From Desulfomonilia bacterium (lineage in GTDB: Bacteria > Desulfobacterota > Desulfomonilia > UBA1062), in NCBI GenBank assembly GCA_963664325.2, contig CAXXDQ010000003.1:1024001-1088000 (forward strand): DNA of 64,000 bases. Reading direction: 5' to 3'. The first letter of the stretch is position 1; each line of letters opens with the position of its first letter. The notes under the pieces were generated by a model. It did no database searches and was not told where the DNA came from. It saw nothing but the letters and a program-made list of their open reading frames with translations. This document shows positions 2,459-11,919 of the stretch, piece by piece. The position numbers and the translations under genes were made by a program.

Positions 2459-4009
2459 ATGAGTTACGAAGATGATCTGATCCTGGCCATAGACAGCGGC
2501 ACCCAGAACGTGAAGGCGGCCGTATTCGATCTGAACGGCAATCAGCTTGCGCTGTCGCGTATGGCGAACGAACCGGATTCGGCCCCTTTTCCCCGCTGGG
2601 TGGAGCACGACCCGGAAGACTACTGGAAGAAACTTTGCGCCACGGTGCGCCAAGTGCTTGGCGCAATCGGCCCCGGCATCGGGAAACTCAAGGCAGTCGG
2701 GCTCACCTCGCAGCGCGGCACGGTCATCCCCATGGATAAAAAAGGCAATATCCTGCGGCCTGCCATTATCTATCTGGACGGACGCGAAACTTTCGGGCTT
2801 CCGCCTTTAGGCGGCTTCTGGGGCCTCTTTTTCAAGGCCATAGGCAAAAAGAGCGCCATAGACTATGTGCGCAGACATTCGCGCTTCCTGTGGATCAGAG
2901 AGAACGAACCCGATGTATACAGCCGGACACACAAGTTCATGCAGGTCGCGAGCTTTCTTAACTACCGGCTTACCGGGCAGATCAACGAATCCATCGCCAT
3001 GATGGTGGGCATGTTCCCGATAGACTACACGAAATTCAAATTCTATCCGTTCAGGGGGATTCACGAGGCATTCGGGGTGACGCCGGCGATGCTGCCCGAG
3101 CTGATGCGGCCGCAGAGCATAACCGGCCGCATCACAAGGGACGCCAGCCGCGAGACCATGATCCCTGAAGGCCTGCCCGTCGTTGTTGGCGGCGGAGACC
3201 AGCAGTCTGCCATGATCGGCATGGGCGTTACCGATGAAAGGCATGCCTCCCTTGTGCTCGGGACGACCATCGGCCTCAATATCCCCTCGAAGAAATATAT
3301 CAATGACAAGGACATAATCTTCCTGCCCTGGCCCTCGGCGATCCCGGATGAATACATACTTGAAGTGGGTGTGGGCAGCGGCCTGCTGACCATATCCTGG
3401 TTCGTGAAGGAACTTGCAGGGCACGAAGCCGCGCTCTCCAGGGAACAGAACAGGCCTGCCGAAGAGATTCTGGAGGAGGCTATCCGCGACATACCGCCGG
3501 GCTCGCTCGGCCTGATGGTCCAGCCTTACTGGAACGCGCCGTTCCACCGGCCCGAGGCCAGGGGTGCGATGCTTGGCTTCTCCATGGCCCATACCCGCGC
3601 ACACCTCTACCGGGCGATTCTCGAAGGCATGGCATATGAGATCAGGGCCGGATACGAGGCCATCCATAAAGAGACCGGTTTTACTCTCGCCGAGATACGC
3701 GTTTCCGGCGGCGGCTCTCAGAGCGACATGCTGCTCGCCATACTGGCCGATGTCCTTGGCATACCGGCTGTCCGCACCAGAGTGGGTGAAGCAGGGGCCC
3801 TGGGTGCGGCCATATGCGCCGCGGCAGGCGCGGGACTTCTGCCCGATTTCAGGGCCGGGATAGAAAAGATGGTGCATGTAAAAGACCGCTTTGAGCCCAG
3901 TCCCGAGAACCGCAGGACCTATGAAACGATGTACGCTACCTACCGGAAAATCTATCTGCGGGTGGGGGACCTGTATCAGGAGACCGAAAACATTGCATCG
4001 GACAAATAA
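2459..4009 (+). CDS. FGGY-family carbohydrate kinase
   Basis: LAIDSGTQNVKA phosphate-1 motif, GGGDQQS, HLYRAILEG, VSGGGSQS. RBS AAGGAG upstream. Confidence 0.92.
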   Translation: MSYEDDLILAIDSGTQNVKAAVFDLNGNQLALSRMANEPDSAPFPRWVEHDPEDYWKKLCATVRQVLGAIGPGIGKLKAVGLTSQRGTVIPMDKKGNILRPAIIYLDGRETFGLPPLGGFWGLFFKAIGKKSAIDYVRRHSRFLWIRENEPDVYSRTHKFMQVASFLNYRLTGQINESIAMMVGMFPIDYTKFKFYPFRGIHEAFGVTPAMLPELMRPQSITGRITRDASRETMIPEGLPVVVGGGDQQSAMIGMGVTDERHASLVLGTTIGLNIPSKKYINDKDIIFLPWPSAIPDEYILEVGVGSGLLTISWFVKELAGHEAALSREQNRPAEEILEEAIRDIPPGSLGLMVQPYWNAPFHRPEARGAMLGFSMAHTRAHLYRAILEGMAYEIRAGYEAIHKETGFTLAEIRVSGGGSQSDMLLAILADVLGIPAVRTRVGEAGALGAAICAAAGAGLLPDFRAGIEKMVHVKDRFEPSPENRRTYETMYATYRKIYLRVGDLYQETENIASDK

Positions 4010-4032: not shown

Positions 4033-5397
4033 GTGAATATGGATACTATTGAAGAAAGAGACCGGCTAAACATTTCCACAAAAATATTTTATCTGTTCGG
4101 CGACATAGGCATATCCATGTGCCTGTCGGCCGTTGCGTTCTTCATCCTGTTCTATTATGCCGATGTGGCCAAGGTCGATCCGGCCCTTGTAGGAACGGCC
4201 CTTCTGCTGGGCAAGCTCTGGGACGCCGTCAGTAATCCGCTCTTCGGCTGGATTTCCGACCGCACCAAGTCGCGCCATGGCCGGCGCAAGGTCTATCTCT
4301 ACTATGCCTCGATCCCTCTGGGCCTGTCCTTTGCCTTGCTCTGGGCCATGCCCGAAGGCCTGACCGGCATCCTGACCACGGTCTGGATTATCGTCACATT
4401 CCTTTTGTACTACACATTCGACAACATCGTAGGGGTATCCTACTATGCCATGACCCCGGAGCTCACGCGCGACTATGATGAGCGCACCAGCCTGACGACC
4501 TTCCGCATGATCGGCGGCACCGTGGGCTACATGGCAGGCGCCGCCCTGCCGCCGTTTATCGCGGGGCTGTTCGCAACCGGAAAGATCGGGTGGAGGATGA
4601 TGGGGATCATGTTCGCGGTTTTTGCCATTATGTGCCTATATATAACGGCCTTCGGGGTCAAACAGCGCAAAGAGCTGGAAGGCCCGCCCTCCACGCTGCC
4701 GGTCTTGCCTTCCATCATCACCTGTTTCAAGAACAAGCCGTATGTGTATCTGATCATTCAGGGCCTTTTTACAGGCATCAGCTTTGTCCTGGTGATGTCG
4801 TACATGGCCTTTTACCTCACCTACCAGCTCAACATGAAGGACAAGATACCGGTCATGATGGTCCTGCTGCTGGCGACGATAGGCGTTTTTCTCTTTCTCT
4901 GGAAGTGGATCACCGACAAATGGGCCAAGGGCCCGACCTATGCACTGGGTCTGTTCATCGCTTTCGGCGCCACCGCGTTATCGTTCTTTTTGCCGCAGGG
5001 CGGCAGCTTCTGGATCTACCCTATTGTCTTCGTGGCCGGGTTCGGATTCTCCGCACAGTGGGTGCTGCCCTGGTCGATCATACCGGATGTGATCGAATAC
5101 GACGAGCTGATCACCGGAGAGAGGCGCGAAGGGATCTACTATGGGGTCAAGGGTCTGACCGACAAGGTTGCCTGGGCCCTTGGGCTTTTTGTAGGCGGCT
5201 GGGTGCTGAAGCTCTTCGGCTTTGTGCCTGAAGCCGCACAGAGCGCGAAATCTCTGCTTGGAATCCGGCTCTTTTTCGGCCCGATCCCGGCGCTCGTGAC
5301 ATTCATCAGTCTGCCGCTCCTGATCTGGTTTCCCATAAACCGCAAAACCCATGCCGAAATACTGGCCAAGCTGAAGCTCAAAAAGGGCGAGAGCTAA
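4033..5397 (+). CDS. MFS transporter, glycoside-pentoside-hexuronide (MelB-like) family
   Basis: Many hydrophobic segments; WDAVSNPLFGWISDRTKSRHGRR, ELTRDYDERT and DVIEYDELITGERREG motifs. Confidence 0.92.
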   Translation: MNMDTIEERDRLNISTKIFYLFGDIGISMCLSAVAFFILFYYADVAKVDPALVGTALLLGKLWDAVSNPLFGWISDRTKSRHGRRKVYLYYASIPLGLSFALLWAMPEGLTGILTTVWIIVTFLLYYTFDNIVGVSYYAMTPELTRDYDERTSLTTFRMIGGTVGYMAGAALPPFIAGLFATGKIGWRMMGIMFAVFAIMCLYITAFGVKQRKELEGPPSTLPVLPSIITCFKNKPYVYLIIQGLFTGISFVLVMSYMAFYLTYQLNMKDKIPVMMVLLLATIGVFLFLWKWITDKWAKGPTYALGLFIAFGATALSFFLPQGGSFWIYPIVFVAGFGFSAQWVLPWSIIPDVIEYDELITGERREGIYYGVKGLTDKVAWALGLFVGGWVLKLFGFVPEAAQSAKSLLGIRLFFGPIPALVTFISLPLLIWFPINRKTHAEILAKLKLKKGES

Positions 5398-5824: not shown

Positions 5825-6535
5825 TTATGTTGGTTCCCGGTCGAGTGCTGCTTTCTTGGCAGCATCTTTTTCGGATGCACTAAGGCCCAATCGATCGACA
5901 CACCTTTCACAAATGAGCCATCCGAAAGATTGTGTTATCGAGGCCTCCTTCATCTCAGCGAAGAAATCTTGCATAGCACCTGTCTTTTGCATAGTTGCGT
6001 CATCTACATAATACCCATCGCCAAATGAAATGGGGTACGAAGAACCCCAAAAGGTTCCATGTGTATTGCAGCAGTATGCTTTCTTGCTTGTTATTTCTTT
6101 GGCCTGCAATGAAGCGTGCACAGAGGCCGCAAAAGGAAGTGCAGGATCCTTAGCATCCAATTTTGGCTCTGTGCCGAATACTGTTTCCCATGCCTTCTGA
6201 GCGGCAGCGAATGCGGGAGGAAATTCTGCAGTACCGAAGTAGGAGGGAAGCTTGCCTGTTTGCTGCCATGTCTGAAAATACTGGCGAGCCTTGGACTTGT
6301 CTACAGAAAACATGTCAATGCAGGACGCACATAATACCCATCCGGTATTGTCGGCAGCCCTACCGAATACATAGGAAGCGAGTTTCTCGCCGTGTTCGCC
6401 AACATACTCGACCTGCTGAGGATAATAGTACCGAAAGAAGAACTCCCAATAGTTTACGTTGGTAACTACTTCAGTTGTTGACAGCATATAGGAACTGTCT
6501 TGCGCTAAGTCCATAGAACAAACATCACATCCCAT
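5825..6535 (-). CDS. Hypothetical integron cassette protein with repeated Cys-motif module
   Basis: Start reassigned to ATG 6535 (RBS AAAGGAGG, just after the attC crossover). Contains CDVC, GWVLCASCID, YCCNTH and GWLICERCVD. Confidence 0.75.
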   Translation of the reverse strand: MGCDVCSMDLAQDSSYMLSTTEVVTNVNYWEFFFRYYYPQQVEYVGEHGEKLASYVFGRAADNTGWVLCASCIDMFSVDKSKARQYFQTWQQTGKLPSYFGTAEFPPAFAAAQKAWETVFGTEPKLDAKDPALPFAASVHASLQAKEITSKKAYCCNTHGTFWGSSYPISFGDGYYVDDATMQKTGAMQDFFAEMKEASITQSFGWLICERCVDRLGLSASEKDAAKKAALDREPT

Positions 6536-6554
6536 GCGTATCCCCCTCCTTTCC

Positions 6555-6679
6555 AGCCAACGATCAAGCTGAGGCACAGCCACCAGAGGCCGACTCCGAA
6601 ATGGAACCGCGACAATCAAATTCCTGAACCGCTCCCACTCACCGGGGCGGTGGCTGTTGCCTCCAGCGCCTTGTTCGGC
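6555..6679 (-). other. Integron attC recombination site
   Basis: Minus strand R'' GCCGAAC 3 nt after the stop of 6683..7123; arm GCTGGAGGCAACAGCCACC pairs with GGTGGCTGTGCCTCAGC leaving two unpaired bases; R' G/TTGGCT; about 125 bp. Confidence 0.88.
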
Positions 6680-6682
6680 GTC

Positions 6683-7123
6683 TTACTCATTGATGAACAA
6701 CGCGTAAATTAGGTGACCGCCATCAGTTACTGGGTCACGCAGAGCAACGCGTTGGCCTGCGCGTATCACTAGATCAGTCTGGGATTTAGCCCTCGCGAGT
6801 TCACTTAAAGTGATGAACATTTCACCCTTCTTGACTAGGTCGAACAGGGCGTCGCGAGGATTCGCAGTGCCTTTCAGAAAGTCGGCAGATACATTTACCG
6901 CATAAGCCGTAGGTCCGTCACAGACGAGTTCTGCGGACTTGGAAACAGTAAGCTGCTCGCAACTGACTGCCTTCGGCACGATCTCTAAATCCGTTGCGAA
7001 AACAATCGCCTTGTGGAGATCGTCCATGTCCCAGAGGATGCCTCTCTTGTCAAACGCCTTCTTGGCTGCCTGTGAGGCTGTCATTAATCTCTCGAATCCT
7101 TCGCGAAACTCGTTTTGGTTCAT
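6683..7123 (-). CDS. Hypothetical integron cassette protein (146 aa)
   Basis: ORF fills the space between G/TTCGGC (7142-7136) and the complementary GCCGAAC of the attC. No recognisable motif. Confidence 0.75.
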   Translation of the reverse strand: MNQNEFREGFERLMTASQAAKKAFDKRGILWDMDDLHKAIVFATDLEIVPKAVSCEQLTVSKSAELVCDGPTAYAVNVSADFLKGTANPRDALFDLVKKGEMFITLSELARAKSQTDLVIRAGQRVALRDPVTDGGHLIYALFINE

Positions 7124-7135
7124 GGGCGTTGTCCA

Positions 7136-7158
7136 GCCGAACTATTGATTATACTGCA
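7136..7158 (-). other. Putative attI-like site at the head of the cassette array
   Basis: Minus strand TGCAGTATAATCAATAG/TTCGGC: crossover core without an attC-length hairpin upstream, loosely resembling attI1 TAAAACAAAG/TT. Confidence 0.45.
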
Positions 7159-7439
7159 GCAATTAAATGTTATCATACTTACCTCCCAACCGATCCGATG
7201 CTTAAAAATATCACGATAAAACCATTGATTCAAGCTATTATATGCTTTAATTTGTTTAAATATTAATGATTATACCGCTGAGAGATAATTGAGTTGAAAT
7301 ATTAATCATGCCTTATAATGTCATTCCAAAATAGCAAACAAAACTATAAAGTACTTTGCAAAACATTGAGCACTAATGGTGTCACCCATTAAAAGGTAGC
7401 TGTCAAGAGAGTAGGTTTCTCCGTTAGCAGAGGCGTTGG

Positions 7440-7828
7440 ACCCTTCTGCTTGCATGTGCAACCATAGCGATAATTGCTGTTTTACCATGCCCTGACTTGC
7501 CGCCGCCTTATTTTCTGTTAATATTGGTTACGGATGCCTGATCCGCACCAGTCACCCATCGGGATCAAGGTTATCTCGGGCTGCCCGAGGCCCGGAACTC
7601 TCGGGGGGGGGTCCGGGGCGAGAGGCAGCCCAACCCCTGGCTTGAAGCCCCAGAAAAAGCATCGGTTCATTGCCGTGTCCGATTTGTTTTCACAGGTTTT
7701 ATGGTTGCTGGCCAACACCTTCTGGCTCATGGCAATGGCGGTTGTCAAAGCATGGCGAGGGACGGCTGACAAATCAGGCCTTGTGGTTCTCATCCCAACA
7801 CCTTGAGGTCTTGCCGTCCCAGCCATAT
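7440..7828 (-). ncRNA. Putative bridge/seek RNA region in the 3' non-coding end of the IS110 (limits approximate)
   Basis: Long non-coding end downstream of the transposase. Contains AAGGCCTGA (7782-7774, target flank plus core) and ATGGGTGA (7559-7552, IS end plus core), each next to a potential stem-loop. Confidence 0.65.
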
Positions 7829-8848
7829 TCATGAAACCAGCATCTCCTCTTTATAGGGGACCTGATCCTTCATGATGTAGTAGCTGGCCCTTGCCAGCTT
7901 ATGGGCCAATGCCTTTATCGCTACAAACTTATTCTGCGAAGACTCCTTGCGCTGGTAAAAGGAATTGAGCCTTCTGTTGTACCTCCTTGCTATGTTTGCA
8001 GCCTCGATAAACGCCCATGCTAAATATTTATTACCGTTCTTTGAGTTGCCTTTACCTTTGACCTTGTCATTCGATGTCCACTTGCCGGATATGCACCTGC
8101 TGTATGACGAAAAGTTGCCGACTTTCTTGAATCTCGATATGTCTCCCACCTCATACATGATTGTTAATGCCAGAGTCTTGCCTATACCCGGAACTGTAAG
8201 AAGGTTTTCAAATTCCCTTCTGAGCCTGGCTTTCTCAAGAACCGCTTTTTCTATAACCCTGATCTCATGATCCAGAGTCCTTATAGTATTTACGCCGGAT
8301 ATTGCCATCAGCCTTGAATATTTGTCCTTGAAGAGCCTTTCTATTTCTTCTTCTTTAAGGGTCTTTATATCATATGAGTTGATTCTTCTTGCCGTGCACC
8401 TGTTGATCAGTCCTTGCAGAGAAAGAATATTGGAGGTCCTTTGATGAACAAAGAAAGTCCTCTTTCTGAACAAATCCCTCAGAGGCCTTTCTTCTTTCGG
8501 GTAAATATACCCTTTCCTCAAAATGCCGAGAGAAAGCATCTGGGCCAGCCAGAACGCGTCGCTCTTGTCATCTGAATGCTTCAGCCCGCTGTACTGATGA
8601 TTCGCAGCAGGGTTTGCAAGGCACACTTCATATCCGGAATCCATCAACCCGTCCACGAGCCAGTACCAGTTGAATGTGCTCTCAACTGTAATAGCCTTGA
8701 TGTTCTCCCTGAATGGTTCAAGTTCATAGACAATCTTGGGCAGTTCGTTCGGAAGCCTCCTGTGGTAAACCTTCTCCTGAGTGATCTTATCCAGTATCCC
8801 AACGTAAGTATTGTTCGAATGAAGATCCATCCCGACGTACAGTTCCAT
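7829..8848 (-). CDS. IS110-family transposase/recombinase
   Basis: DEDD-type residues VGMDLHS, TVESTF and KHSDDKSDA; LLTVPGIG; SKNGNKYL; ALAHKLAR. Start at ATG 8848 (MELYVG). Confidence 0.95.
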   Translation of the reverse strand: MELYVGMDLHSNNTYVGILDKITQEKVYHRRLPNELPKIVYELEPFRENIKAITVESTFNWYWLVDGLMDSGYEVCLANPAANHQYSGLKHSDDKSDAFWLAQMLSLGILRKGYIYPKEERPLRDLFRKRTFFVHQRTSNILSLQGLINRCTARRINSYDIKTLKEEEIERLFKDKYSRLMAISGVNTIRTLDHEIRVIEKAVLEKARLRREFENLLTVPGIGKTLALTIMYEVGDISRFKKVGNFSSYSRCISGKWTSNDKVKGKGNSKNGNKYLAWAFIEAANIARRYNRRLNSFYQRKESSQNKFVAIKALAHKLARASYYIMKDQVPYKEEMLVS

Positions 8849-8940
8849 CTCCTGTCCCTCCCTTCCTTCGCTTTCTATTCTCAACGTCCTCTGCTAGGGA
8901 GAAACTTACTACTCCTTAGAAACTGCCTTTTAGATGATTA

Positions 8941-9064
8941 TCAGGCCTTTATTCTTGATATTTATGTCGATTGGTTTTAGGTTTTTATTATGGATACATC
9001 GCTGAGTATCGAATATCCAAGAGCAGAATACGTTTTATTTTGTCAAGGATAAAGGCCTGACACA
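8941..9064. repeat. REP-like inverted repeat pair (IS110 target)
   Basis: TCAGGCCTTTATTCTTGATA (8941-8960) and TGTCAAGGATAAAGGCCTGA (9041-9060) are 18/20 complementary. The match extends through TGTCA once the IS is removed. Confidence 0.75.
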
Positions 9065-9102
9065 CTGTCACCACATCTACATAAACAGGAGCAGTGGAAA
9101 TT

Positions 9103-9285
9103 ATGACAGACAGAAAGAAAGCATGGATAAGGCCGGAACTGATTGTCTTGGTCCGCAACAAACCAGAAGAGCAAGTTCTGACTGCATGTAAGACCAGTGG
9201 GCAAACGTCTTCGGTGTCCACGTTCCAGACAGGGTGCAAGGACGAATTTGGGTGTCCTGACTGCAGCGAGCCGGGCTCATCCTAA
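9103..9285 (+). CDS. Small Cys-rich peptide, putative RiPP precursor
   Basis: MTDRKKAWIRPELIVLVRNKPEEQVLTAC leader with a WxxPxL motif, then a Ser/Thr/Gly-rich part; 4 Cys in total. AGGAG upstream. Confidence 0.65.
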   Translation: MTDRKKAWIRPELIVLVRNKPEEQVLTACKTSGQTSSVSTFQTGCKDEFGCPDCSEPGSS

Positions 9286-9387
9286 ACATCCCCAACCCCT
9301 TTGTGACTGATGGACCAGTCGAGAAATCTTCGTCAAATTACTTAAAGAGTTACAAGTCATCAGATCATAGCATAAAATTGAAAATGA

Positions 9388-9852
9388 CTACTCGTAATTT
9401 CCATAGACCCGTATGTGTATGATATAGCCTTTGCTGTCCTTCGGGTAGTAGAGCGTTGTACGATAAAAAAGGGATGCCCGATTGGGGTTCAGGGGAATAA
9501 GCTGGGTATCAAGGAACACGGTGCCTAAAATCTCGCCGTCCTTGGTTTCCGCGGCAATCTCTATTCCTTGGATCAGTTCATCATATGCAATTGTTCCGCG
9601 TGGAGTCCTGTAACATAATGCAAGGTCTATGAGCACGGTCTCGCCTGTCAGGAGATTGAGGGCCGTCCCGGCTAATATTGCCGTACCACCCTTTATTGTA
9701 GTTTTGAACTCCTCGTGTGACAGCGGTTTTGCGGACATCGGAATCGAGAGGTCGACCTGAAGTATCTGGCCATAAGAGATAACAGGTGCTGCAAGCAAAG
9801 CGATAAGCAAGAAGGCCCTCAGTTTCATTTTTCGGAAAAATAAATTGCTCAT
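9388..9852 (-). CDS. Hypothetical exported protein
   Basis: Basic-hydrophobic signal peptide (RKMKLRAFLLIALLAAPVISYG); AAAGGGGG upstream of ATG 9852. Confidence 0.65.
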   Translation of the reverse strand: MSNLFFRKMKLRAFLLIALLAAPVISYGQILQVDLSIPMSAKPLSHEEFKTTIKGGTAILAGTALNLLTGETVLIDLALCYRTPRGTIAYDELIQGIEIAAETKDGEILGTVFLDTQLIPLNPNRASLFYRTTLYYPKDSKGYIIHIRVYGNYE

Positions 9853-9996
9853 ATTGCCCCCTTTCAAATGATGAATCAGCTATAAATCCGACCACCACAA
9901 AGTACACCGGTATCATTAATTTTATGCTGTTATGATGTGTTTCCTCTGCCATTCAATTTTTACTATGTTTATATTCGCAATTATTTCGTAAATTTT

Positions 9997-11919
9997 CTAT
10001 TCTGCGATCAAAACGATATCATGCCGGGCACTCAGGGAAACATTGACTGAAATCGAGTTCACCCCGGAATACTCCTCCTGCGGCACCCCGTCCATAACGA
10101 GTTTCCATGTCCTGTCAGGGTCAAGTTTTATTATGTTAAACGATGTGGTGCCGCTCTGGTCTGTTCCCCCCTCGGTTGTTATAACGAGGGCCTCCTTTTC
10201 AAAGTCGTAGATAGCCCGCTTGAGCAGGACATTCGGAAAGGACAGGCCGGTCACCTGAGGAGAATCGAAATCCCGCTGAGTGAACGGTTTGCTGTGAAGT
10301 GCCAGGAGACCGTTGGGAGGGTTCGCAGCAGCAAAGGCAACAAGCACGCCTGTAAGGGCATGAGACCACGGGGTGAAAGCCGTTTTGGAAAGATTGAGGT
10401 ATGTGTCTTGCTCAACCGGGAAACGGAGCATACCGTCTTCCCACGAGGCCTTGTAGTAATCCTTGCACCAGGCCACCAGCTTGTCCCTCAGGTCCGTATC
10501 TCCCACTTCCGCTGCCAGCAGGGCGAAGAACGGTGTGGCGCACTGGTCTGAGAGCATCTCGGTTTTCAGGTATGCAGTATTGCTGTCTGGCGCTATCACA
10601 TGCCTTTGCTTCTGGTACGGATAATGTCGTTCGATTAAACCCGGCTCCCAGGCATGCATGAAGGCGCCGTTCCATCCGTTGGAAACCGAGGCATTGGCCT
10701 GGATTACCCCAAGCCAGGCCAGTGGAACCGTTAACAGGGACAGGCCGTTGCCGAAGCTGCAGAACTCCTGGGTGATGGTTGTTTTCTGTTTCACCAGATA
10801 CATGAAACAGGTCTCATGCGTGACCGGGTTGATGAACATGTTCTTGAGGAAAAAATCCAGAAAGGAGTTGCGGGCCTCGGCATAGGATGTCCCGTGTATA
10901 TGGTCGTACAGCATTAATGACAGGATAGGATGCTGGTTGCATTCTCCGAAGACCGCGTTGGGCTCGCATTCTATGCTGTGGTAAGAATTGTTCGCCATCT
11001 GGTCGTACATGACCTTTTGCAGGGAATTGTTGTCATAGGTATACTGCTCGGCATCGCTCCACTTGAAGACGATGGAACCGGGCTCGTCCCATTTCAAGTC
11101 ATGGTAAAGCGTTTCATAAAGACCGATCATCTGCCCCAGGTGTCCGGAGTACATGATGTTCTTTTTCCCGACCGGGTCGTGCTCTTCCGGATAGGGCGTG
11201 TTCAGCAGCGGCTCGATAAAATTAACCCCTTTGCTGCGTTCGGCCCAGTACTGCCACACCTGCTTCTGAATCATTTTCTGGATCAGTTTGTCCATGCGCG
11301 GCTTGATGTACTCGCGCCAGGCCGGTAGCTTGTGGTACTGCTCCAGCGCAAAGAAGTAGGTCATGAAAGCGATGCTGTAGCGGTACGAGGAGAGATAGAA
11401 TTGGGTTTCTTCATATGTCTTGATCCTGCTGAAGTCGTCAAGGGCATCGTCACTGACGGAGAGATACCAGCGGAACAGGCCCATTTCATCCGTGCCGATC
11501 TGCTGATATGAGGCAGGATCGACTGTCGGCAACGCAGGAACGATGCCGGTCAGGCTTTTAATCGAATAACCGGCCTTGTTTTTGGCGACCACGATGATGT
11601 CATAATTCACACCTGTTATAAGGCCTTTGAACTGGTAACCGTCCTTGGATACATCCACAGGTCCCTCTGAAGACCCGGTGACAGTGGACCCGTCAGCAGT
11701 GATCGCACCGGTCGTACCTATATAGGCTTCCACTGACGGCACGGGGTCGCCTTTCGTGGCAAAGGCGGGCAGGTCAATGGTTATGGTACGCGAGCTGAAC
11801 GCCTTAACTTTCAAGTCATTAAGAACCGGCGCCGCTGCCTGTTTGCATCCGGTCAAAAGAAAAAGAATTACAATAAACCAGACCAGTATACATTTTTTTA
11901 TTATTGAGTTCATATTCAT
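9997..11919 (-). CDS. Lipoprotein with FN3-like N-domain and linalool dehydratase/isomerase-family catalytic domain
   Basis: Lipobox LLTGC; NIMYSGHLGQMIGLYE and IECEPNAVFGECNQH resemble LinD motifs as recalled (NIMYKGHL, CEPDNYFVQCN); YDIIVVAKNKAGYS FN3-like strand. Confidence 0.75.
   Translation of the reverse strand: MNMNSIIKKCILVWFIVILFLLTGCKQAAAPVLNDLKVKAFSSRTITIDLPAFATKGDPVPSVEAYIGTTGAITADGSTVTGSSEGPVDVSKDGYQFKGLITGVNYDIIVVAKNKAGYSIKSLTGIVPALPTVDPASYQQIGTDEMGLFRWYLSVSDDALDDFSRIKTYEETQFYLSSYRYSIAFMTYFFALEQYHKLPAWREYIKPRMDKLIQKMIQKQVWQYWAERSKGVNFIEPLLNTPYPEEHDPVGKKNIMYSGHLGQMIGLYETLYHDLKWDEPGSIVFKWSDAEQYTYDNNSLQKVMYDQMANNSYHSIECEPNAVFGECNQHPILSLMLYDHIHGTSYAEARNSFLDFFLKNMFINPVTHETCFMYLVKQKTTITQEFCSFGNGLSLLTVPLAWLGVIQANASVSNGWNGAFMHAWEPGLIERHYPYQKQRHVIAPDSNTAYLKTEMLSDQCATPFFALLAAEVGDTDLRDKLVAWCKDYYKASWEDGMLRFPVEQDTYLNLSKTAFTPWSHALTGVLVAFAAANPPNGLLALHSKPFTQRDFDSPQVTGLSFPNVLLKRAIYDFEKEALVITTEGGTDQSGTTSFNIIKLDPDRTWKLVMDGVPQEEYSGVNSISVNVSLSARHDIVLIAE

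Follow-up and report, generated by a model that had tools for sequence, protein, structure and literature searches.

Transposases of the IS110/IS1111 group are RNA-guided recombinases under development as programmable DNA-insertion tools, and two published systems, cited here from the passages that concern their RNAs and ends, stand closest to the locus described below. For the insertion sequence IS621 (Durrant et al. 2024, PMC11208160; Hiraizumi et al. 2024, PMC11208158), these passages describe a bridge RNA with one loop for the target and one for the joined element ends, each loop pairing with both DNA strands around a core of two nucleotides (nt), extra bases that pair with the partner DNA (the handshake), and a recombinase of the DEDD plus serine type. 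For the IS1111 elements ISEc11, ISPa11, ISKpn4 and ISPst6 (Siddiquee et al. 2024, PMC11187229), they describe a transposase of about 340 amino acids (aa), a long non-coding region downstream of its gene, subterminal inverted repeats, and a seekRNA whose two matches meet at the insertion point, the top-strand match lying 5' of the bottom-strand match, together with close relatives that have been retargeted naturally; how the ends are recognised and what the 'long' RNA is for are left open in that account. Many IS1111 elements are further described as holding their donor-binding bases in a multiloop (Durrant et al., PMC11208160).

We analysed a 64,000-nt stretch of DNA from a Desulfomonilia bacterium (the window; positions 1,024,001 to 1,088,000 of contig CAXXDQ010000003.1, assembly GCA_963664325.2), whose own positions are used throughout and in which all features named below lie on the minus strand and are read in that sense. 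At 7385-8941 it holds what is very likely a well-preserved but ordinary IS1111-type insertion sequence of the IS110 family with a bridge (seek) RNA. A preliminary description, made from the window itself, had proposed such an element with target- and donor-binding segments in its 3' non-coding end, and protein families, a covarying RNA fold and the tracking of flanks and ends by the guides all bear this out. Each of the features listed above for the four IS1111 elements recurs here, a likeness drawn from their descriptions and not from sequence comparison, and the layout also agrees with the multiloop arrangement; the loops for target and joined ends, their apparent pairing with both strands around a dinucleotide core, the partner-matching bases and the DEDD/serine protein recall IS621. 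The locus adds a compact, sequence-intact system of 339 aa and about 320 nt of RNA, whose sequence directly shows all four guide segments (the right donor guide as a candidate), the core and the natural target, and roughly 90 aligned relatives provide a guide-to-target code for the clade.

The element, its ends and its target

The ends of the element were set by homology: in multi-copy relatives, the flanks diverge exactly outside TG-ATAATCAT... on one side and ...TAATGGG-TG on the other, which here delimits a body of 1557 base pairs (bp; 7385-8941), or 1559 bp with one copy of the TG core. The core is common to both junctions (8942-8943 on the left, 7383-7384 on the right) and there is no longer target duplication, the two TG copies being the short shared core of a site-specific insertion. 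The core had earlier been read as TGA. Because one relative (L051) carries CG at both junctions and because flanks diverge as just described, the core is a dinucleotide, and the third base matches by chance in this copy. The insertion point listed for ISEc11 likewise follows TG, as given in the cited part of PMC13604230. The left end spans 93 nt (8849-8941) and has the conserved terminus ATAATCATC, and the right-end terminus (7385-7409) includes TTGACA (7406-7401) and a terminal ATGGG (7389-7385). Subterminal inverted repeats, TAAAAGGCAG (8932-8923) and CTACCTTTTA (7399-7390), are complementary at 9 of 10 positions, with terminal extensions of 9 nt and 5 nt beyond them. Non-coding DNA amounts to 444 nt downstream of the transposase gene (7828-7385), compared with 93 nt upstream of it (8941-8849).

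The transposase gene (7829-8848; 339 aa plus stop codon) encodes an N-terminal, RuvC-like DEDD domain (PF01548, DEDD_Tnp_IS110; E-value 2.5e-13) and a C-terminal transposase domain (PF02371; E-value 4.4e-16), and the whole protein scores 176 bits, over a cut-off of 140, with the NCBIfam model NF033542, 'IS110 family RNA-guided transposase'. Its reading frame is open, and in an alignment with seven relatives (50-57% identity) it departs from none of the columns that are invariant across the eight sequences, with the DLHS, VEST, SDDxxDA and TSN motifs all present. The C-terminal domain also aligns to the IS621 transposase (8wt6, chain 8wt6_A; E-value 2.6e-8), placing the serine of TSN on the serine of the IS621 ESG motif; in this clade a motif [ST][ND] stands where the published motif reads S/T-G.

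The left target flank (8944-8959, ...ATAAAGGCC) terminates in AATAAAGGCC and the right target flank (7373-7382) begins with ACACCATTAG. With the element removed in silico, the restored site is a 13-mer of which the genome has 14 copies, compared with 0.11 expected. Most of these copies fall within a repeat of about 25 nt, of which 17 copies were found at up to 4 mismatches, and several of the repeat copies form inverted pairs 34-528 bp apart. In the window, the left flank is the inner part of the right-hand repeat copy, and genome repeat comparison places an inverted partner copy at 9038-9063. Together, 9038-9063, 8944-8959 and 7378-7382 make up a palindromic unit of about 120 bp, resembling a miniature inverted-repeat transposable element (MITE) or a repetitive extragenic palindromic (REP) sequence, into whose end the element has inserted. 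Insertion into the ends of small repeat units is a known habit of the IS1111-type family, and an IS1111-type element is described that likewise occupies one fixed position within the terminal repeat of a different repetitive element; unlike in that case, and by comparison of descriptions only, the target repeat here is a unit of about 25 nt that often occurs as short inverted pairs. For the host genome the finding is an ordinary one, namely one insertion sequence inside one copy of a short repeat. A sister repeat family, ending ...AAGGGC-TG-ACCCC, clusters on contig C8 of the same genome.

The element is present once in the 4.3-Mb genome, and its transposase gene is the only IS110-family gene there. 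What remains of related elements elsewhere in the genome (G000) are decayed end fragments only (C7:698300-698520, C7:57050-57300, C7:56211-56239 and C8:79500-79650; loci L002, L003 and L005): a left end of 54 bp that is 93% identical, a right end of 99 bp (83%), and two right-end pieces of about 30 bp. These fragments adjoin copies of the target repeat, and at two sites the remnant has a copy of the flank on each side, which suggests past insertions followed by deletion, or some other event that involved ends only.

A covarying RNA fold downstream of the transposase gene

Relatives were collected from 52 genomes of the same family, of which 12 (the window genome included) held a match, and from a species-representative collection, in which 542 relatives were confirmed and the best 80 kept. 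The region after the stop codon was aligned for 29 elements and folded with RNAalifold, and the remainder of the RNA was aligned for 41 elements; the first alignment places a small inner hairpin one column off, so that its counts at that hairpin carry little meaning. A covariance model (R1) was built from the first module, described next. Minimum-energy folds of the non-coding end pair this module roughly as the comparative fold does, but single-sequence folds were not used, since outside it they draw long-range helices that are absent from the relatives.

Directly downstream of the gene lies module A (7752-7826), a target-binding loop closed by stem P1 (7826-7813 with 7766-7752). In the 29-element alignment, P1 has compensatory changes in all 10 of its pairs and 96.5% of its cells paired; none of 500 shuffles reached the observed value on four of five measures, and 8 of 500 reached it for pairs changed on both sides. 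Pairing falls from 85.5% to 36-52% once the 3' partners are shifted along. R1 gave 98 matches in 92 of 100 sources, nearly all of which begin right at the end of the transposase gene. Module B (7670-7735), a second, target-like loop, is closed by stem P2 (7735-7728 with 7677-7670), which has compensatory changes in 7 of 8 pairs in the 41-element alignment. Further downstream follow hairpin C1 (7651-7634), in which all 5 pairs have compensatory changes, the variable hairpin C2 (7631-7578), whose length and sequence differ among relatives, and hairpin C3 (7525-7550), which recurs in relatives. The C3 position holds the TGCGGAT/ATCCGTA stem (7550-7525) that had been noted from the window, and in 39 of 41 relatives a hairpin stands there, immediately downstream of the donor guide (mean z -2.93). 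Lastly, a long-range stem, P0, whose 5' half CCGCC (7741-7737) and 3' half GGCGG (7503-7507) enclose a multiloop with modules B and C, is weakly supported. The alignments contain 15 G-U cells in P1, 38 in P0 and 21 in P2; as G-U pairs would be A-C mismatches on the opposite strand, the stems fit the transposase-sense strand only.

The preliminary description had also drawn a stem between TTGTCA (7772-7767) and TGACAA (7747-7742). The letters are there, but the stem crosses P1, and a counterpart exists in 12 of 81 distinct relatives when G-U pairs are allowed, with about 6 expected by chance on a hand estimate, so that this pairing was given up.

Several further observations concern the region as a whole. 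Hairpin C2 carries a run of nine C (within 7578-7631) of which there is no equivalent in L014, a same-genus relative discussed below. An open reading frame of 104 aa (7518-7832) overlaps the whole RNA region without matching any Pfam family; the conserved RNA fold makes it most likely that this frame is no gene. In some relatives, two or three target-loop modules, whose guide strands differ from one module to the next, stand in tandem after a single gene (L054, 3502-3928; L052, 3502-3771; L046, 3502-3767; L106, 1465-1744). In another (L107), the target-loop module (4828-4931) does not adjoin the transposase gene (2501-3514) but stands some 1.3 kb further downstream, and extra DNA may lie between gene and RNA. 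The closest named transposase in the plasmid collection, ISGsu4-like according to the annotation of its plasmid record, shares 46% identity over 97% of the protein; R1 finds no match in its locus (L108), so that the tie to named elements is one of protein similarity alone.

Guide segments track flanks and ends

Module A contains the two target guides. On the 5' strand of the loop, GGTGT (7798-7802) is the reverse complement of ACACC in the right flank and is directly followed by the inner hairpin (7797-7784); this is the opposite-strand half of the target that had not been identified from the window. On the 3' strand, AAGGCC (7782-7777) is the left target guide, followed by the core TG (7776-7775) and by AT (7774-7773), the first 2 nt of the left end of the element. 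The right target guide thus lies 5' of the left one, which is the IS1111-type order. The preliminary description had seen this left match as AAGGCCTGA (7782-7774), which is present and reproduces the left flank plus core (8949-8941); the agreement in fact extends over one base more (10 nt, AAGGCCTGAT). The same holds for its donor-side counterpart, ATGGGTGA (7559-7552), equal to the right end plus core at 7389-7382 and likewise one base longer than noted (9 nt, ATGGGTGAC).

The preliminary description had named covariation of guides with target and donor in homologues as the check to be made, and the left flank, the right flank and the right end are all tracked. We scored 67 unique pairs of guide and left flank and 56 pairs of guide and right flank, excluding right junctions where the search pattern had caught an internal motif or a core other than TG/CG. 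Exact words of at least 6 nt shared between the left guide and the left flank plus core occur in 35 of 67 cognate pairs, compared with 100 of 4406 non-cognate pairs, and right-flank words of at least 5 nt in 28 of 56 cognate pairs, compared with 322 of 3054. In a fixed register, the left guide agrees with its own flank at a mean of 4.40 of 6 positions, against 2.11 +/- 0.14 when the flanks are permuted; for the right guide, with six offsets allowed for every pair, cognate or permuted, the figures are 4.93 of 6 and 3.60 +/- 0.12, and none of 10,000 permutations reached the observed value in either case. The copy in the window is cognate with its own site, matching it with the left guide at 6/6 positions plus core and with the right guide at 5/5. 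The 2 nt after the core in module A are AT in 67 and GT in 22 of the 98 matches, and the left end mostly begins with AT.

Module B is built on the same plan, with strands GGTGT (7719-7715) and AAAACC-TG (7700-7693). It tracks both flanks, less closely than module A does (right flank, 3.80 compared with 3.44 +/- 0.10 permuted; left flank, 5.49 compared with 4.56 +/- 0.13; 0 of 5000 permutations each), and its 2 nt after the core match neither partner. The possibility that module B is the donor loop was rejected, its strands matching the target and not the element ends.

The comparison with L014, from a same-genus genome (G008:C47) and about 84-87% identical to the window element in nucleotides, supports natural retargeting as far as the two sequences allow. 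L014 has lost, by an internal deletion, the segment corresponding to window positions 8342-7856, the C-terminal half of the transposase gene, and has kept both ends and the RNA region. Within its RNA, differences are clustered on the guide strands of modules A and B, with stems and module C nearly unchanged. The left guide of L014, TGTTC-TG-AT, is identical to the left junction of L014 itself, and the right guide agrees with the right flank there at 4 of 5 positions.

The donor-matching strands lie in module C. A conserved box, CCTTGATCC (7570-7562), precedes the left donor guide GATGGG (7560-7555), the core TG (7554-7553) and AC (7552-7551), the two bases with which the right flank opens, and this segment covaries with the right-end terminus and the right target flank. 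The motif CCTTGATCC-N-GATGGG-TG-NN-TGG was found in 75 of 106 sources scanned, and the guide variants GGC, GGGC and GGGG recur in the right-end terminus of the same relatives, 120-180 nt downstream. In 12 of 18 unique combinations, the right flank starts with the same 2 nt that follow the core in this motif (mean 1.5 of 2, compared with 0.74 +/- 0.15 permuted; 0 of 10,000), and on our reading two more combinations fit if a 4-nt duplication of the terminus is allowed. We take the box itself for a structural or protein-binding one; pairing of the box with the subterminal repeat was rejected, since it stays constant while the repeat changes. A GAACC box and the candidate right donor guide GATGCTTTT (7663-7655) occupy 7655-7668, the candidate being identified by its complementarity to the left end: it pairs with 7 of 9 bases of the terminus ATAATCATC, and relatives with other left-end termini (L075, L081, L105, L076 and L077) show matching changes in the guide.

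Alternative readings and a proposed mechanism

A number of results weigh against a bridge-RNA element of this build, or against parts of it. P0, with 83.9% of its cells paired, is almost wholly invariant or changed on one side only. In a search of 6500-10000 with Rfam 15 at E-values up to 1, no relevant family was found, the only match being a chance-level thermometer inside the gene (E-value 0.5; 22 bits, compared with a gathering threshold of 88). A long exact match is missing from about half of the cognate pairs, and the left guide of one multi-copy family (G035/G036) agrees at no more than 2-3 bases plus core. Because the permutation tests take no account of how the elements are related, and many elements share a target, the significance of these tests is overstated. 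Covariation of the candidate right donor guide is weak (5.75, compared with 5.48 +/- 0.08 permuted; 15 of 10,000 reach it), a weakness that stems from how little the left end varies. Finally, the element stands in single copy while 14 perfect targets are empty, and may therefore be silent, newly arrived or tightly repressed; and within the integrated element no sigma-70-like promoter was predicted, with 2.3 expected in shuffles.

The last two of these results are also what one would expect if the element were a bridge-RNA insertion sequence by descent that is now immobile, that is, a sequence-intact relic that is not expressed or is unable to move. The presence of nothing but decayed end fragments of its relatives elsewhere in the genome fits such a history, as does the loss of half of the transposase in L014. 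Against it stand an open reading frame with all invariant residues, guides that are all cognate with the flanks and ends of this copy, and RNA stems that are intact throughout, and a low copy number is itself expected if expression needs a promoter that forms only in the excised circle; on balance we regard immobility as rather unlikely, though it is to be taken seriously. The proposal of an intact and potentially reprogrammable recombinase, made in the preliminary description, holds to the extent that sequence can show it.

A different reading has the non-coding end acting as DNA, its guide-like words being internal copies of ends and target to which the transposase binds directly. Such words would have the same sense as the junctions, like internal end-repeats, as the two junction words do, and IS1111 elements do carry subterminal inverted repeats in the published descriptions cited. 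But the words occupy the unpaired strands of helices that are kept by compensatory changes, and the many G-U pairs of these helices would be A-C mismatches on the other strand; moreover, guides of opposite sense for the two halves of a site, overlapping near the core, are the signature published for bridge and seek RNAs, and in IS1111 relatives, according to the cited passages, the RNA co-purified with the transposase and was essential. We therefore consider this reading very improbable. Still less credence is due to the idea that the two matches seen in the window are chance repeats in an unrelated 3' untranslated region. When 25-nt junction windows were compared with the 429-nt non-coding end on both strands in 2000 dinucleotide shuffles, a single junction word was not very rare (a left-junction word of at least 10 nt in 24 of 2000, a right-junction word of at least 9 nt in 88 of 2000), and both together occurred in 2 of 2000, so that the window alone is only suggestive and it is the comparison with relatives that makes the case. 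As the counterparts of these positions in each relative follow the flanks of that relative, with 0 of 10,000 permutations reaching the observed agreement, a chance origin is contradicted already.

Taking the element as one with a bridge RNA, we propose the following mechanism. Transcribed on the transposase strand, 7385-7828 would form a bridge (seek) RNA of three similarly built modules. In each module, which a stem closes, the 5' strand bears a GAACC-like box and a guide, the 3' strand bears a guide followed by the core and 2 more bases, and a small TGG...CCA hairpin stands between the two strands. Module C, in the multiloop, would recognise the joined ends of the element itself, GATGGG-TG pairing with the right end plus core and GATGCTTTT probably with the left end. 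In modules A and C, the 2 nt that follow the core match the partner DNA (AT and AC, respectively), so that each bottom-strand guide spells a product junction. Bound to this RNA, the DEDD/serine transposase would insert the circularised element at the TG at the end of the repeat of about 25 nt; transcription, RNA-protein binding and recombination activity are what we infer from the anatomy of the locus.

Transcription would probably start from a promoter formed at the circle junction. Joining the ends places TTGACA (7406-7401) ahead of a 17-nt spacer (16 nt of the right end plus the T of the core) and of the core G with ATAAT (8941-8937), the latter making up most of a candidate -10 hexamer, and the sources of both hexamers are conserved in relatives. 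Promoters that arise when the ends are joined (junction promoters, Pjunc) are described for the IS110/IS1111 family.

It is conceivable, though we would put it below even chances, that the RNA of this clade is a three-loop rather than a two-loop bridge RNA, as module B, the partner-matching bases and the tandem target loops hint. The role of module B could lie in excision, where it would hold on to the flanks of the integrated copy, or in a wider choice of targets. Together with the position of the partner-matching bases and the target loops in tandem, module B makes up all that may go beyond the published descriptions, as represented by the passages cited. Were the partner-matching bases on the bottom-strand guides confirmed as such, strand exchange would start on the opposite strand from that in IS621, and tandem target loops such as those of L054, L052, L046 and L106 would allow several targets for each element.

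Set against IS621 as it is portrayed in those passages, the locus differs in several ways: the RNA lies 3' of the gene here and 5' of it in IS621, and a loop has its guides in the reverse order; TG takes the place of CT as the core; the 2 partner-matching nt follow the bottom-strand guide, compared with the top-strand guide; the top-strand guides seem to end at or just short of the core; and there are three modules instead of two. Unlike in the cited account of the seekRNA elements (PMC11187229), the donor-matching multiloop and the second target-like loop are located in the longer part of the RNA. This bears on the question which that account leaves open, the longer part here holding donor-matching strands that covary with the ends.

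Of the 23 sequencing runs listed, none is recorded as RNA; the single run of raw DNA reads (X23) yielded none on the stretch and is uninformative, and two contig sets contain the stretch in unchanged form and may be where it comes from. Related sequences also turned up in assemblies of individual runs. In runs X1 and X3 (contig records 2 and 6), a contig of 1.6-1.7 kb at higher depth represents another element of the same clade; it matches the window only at 7545-7571 and 8652-8677, and the same sample holds the window. In run X10 (record 4), which is labelled as another organism, a 210-nt contig is identical to 7615-7824.

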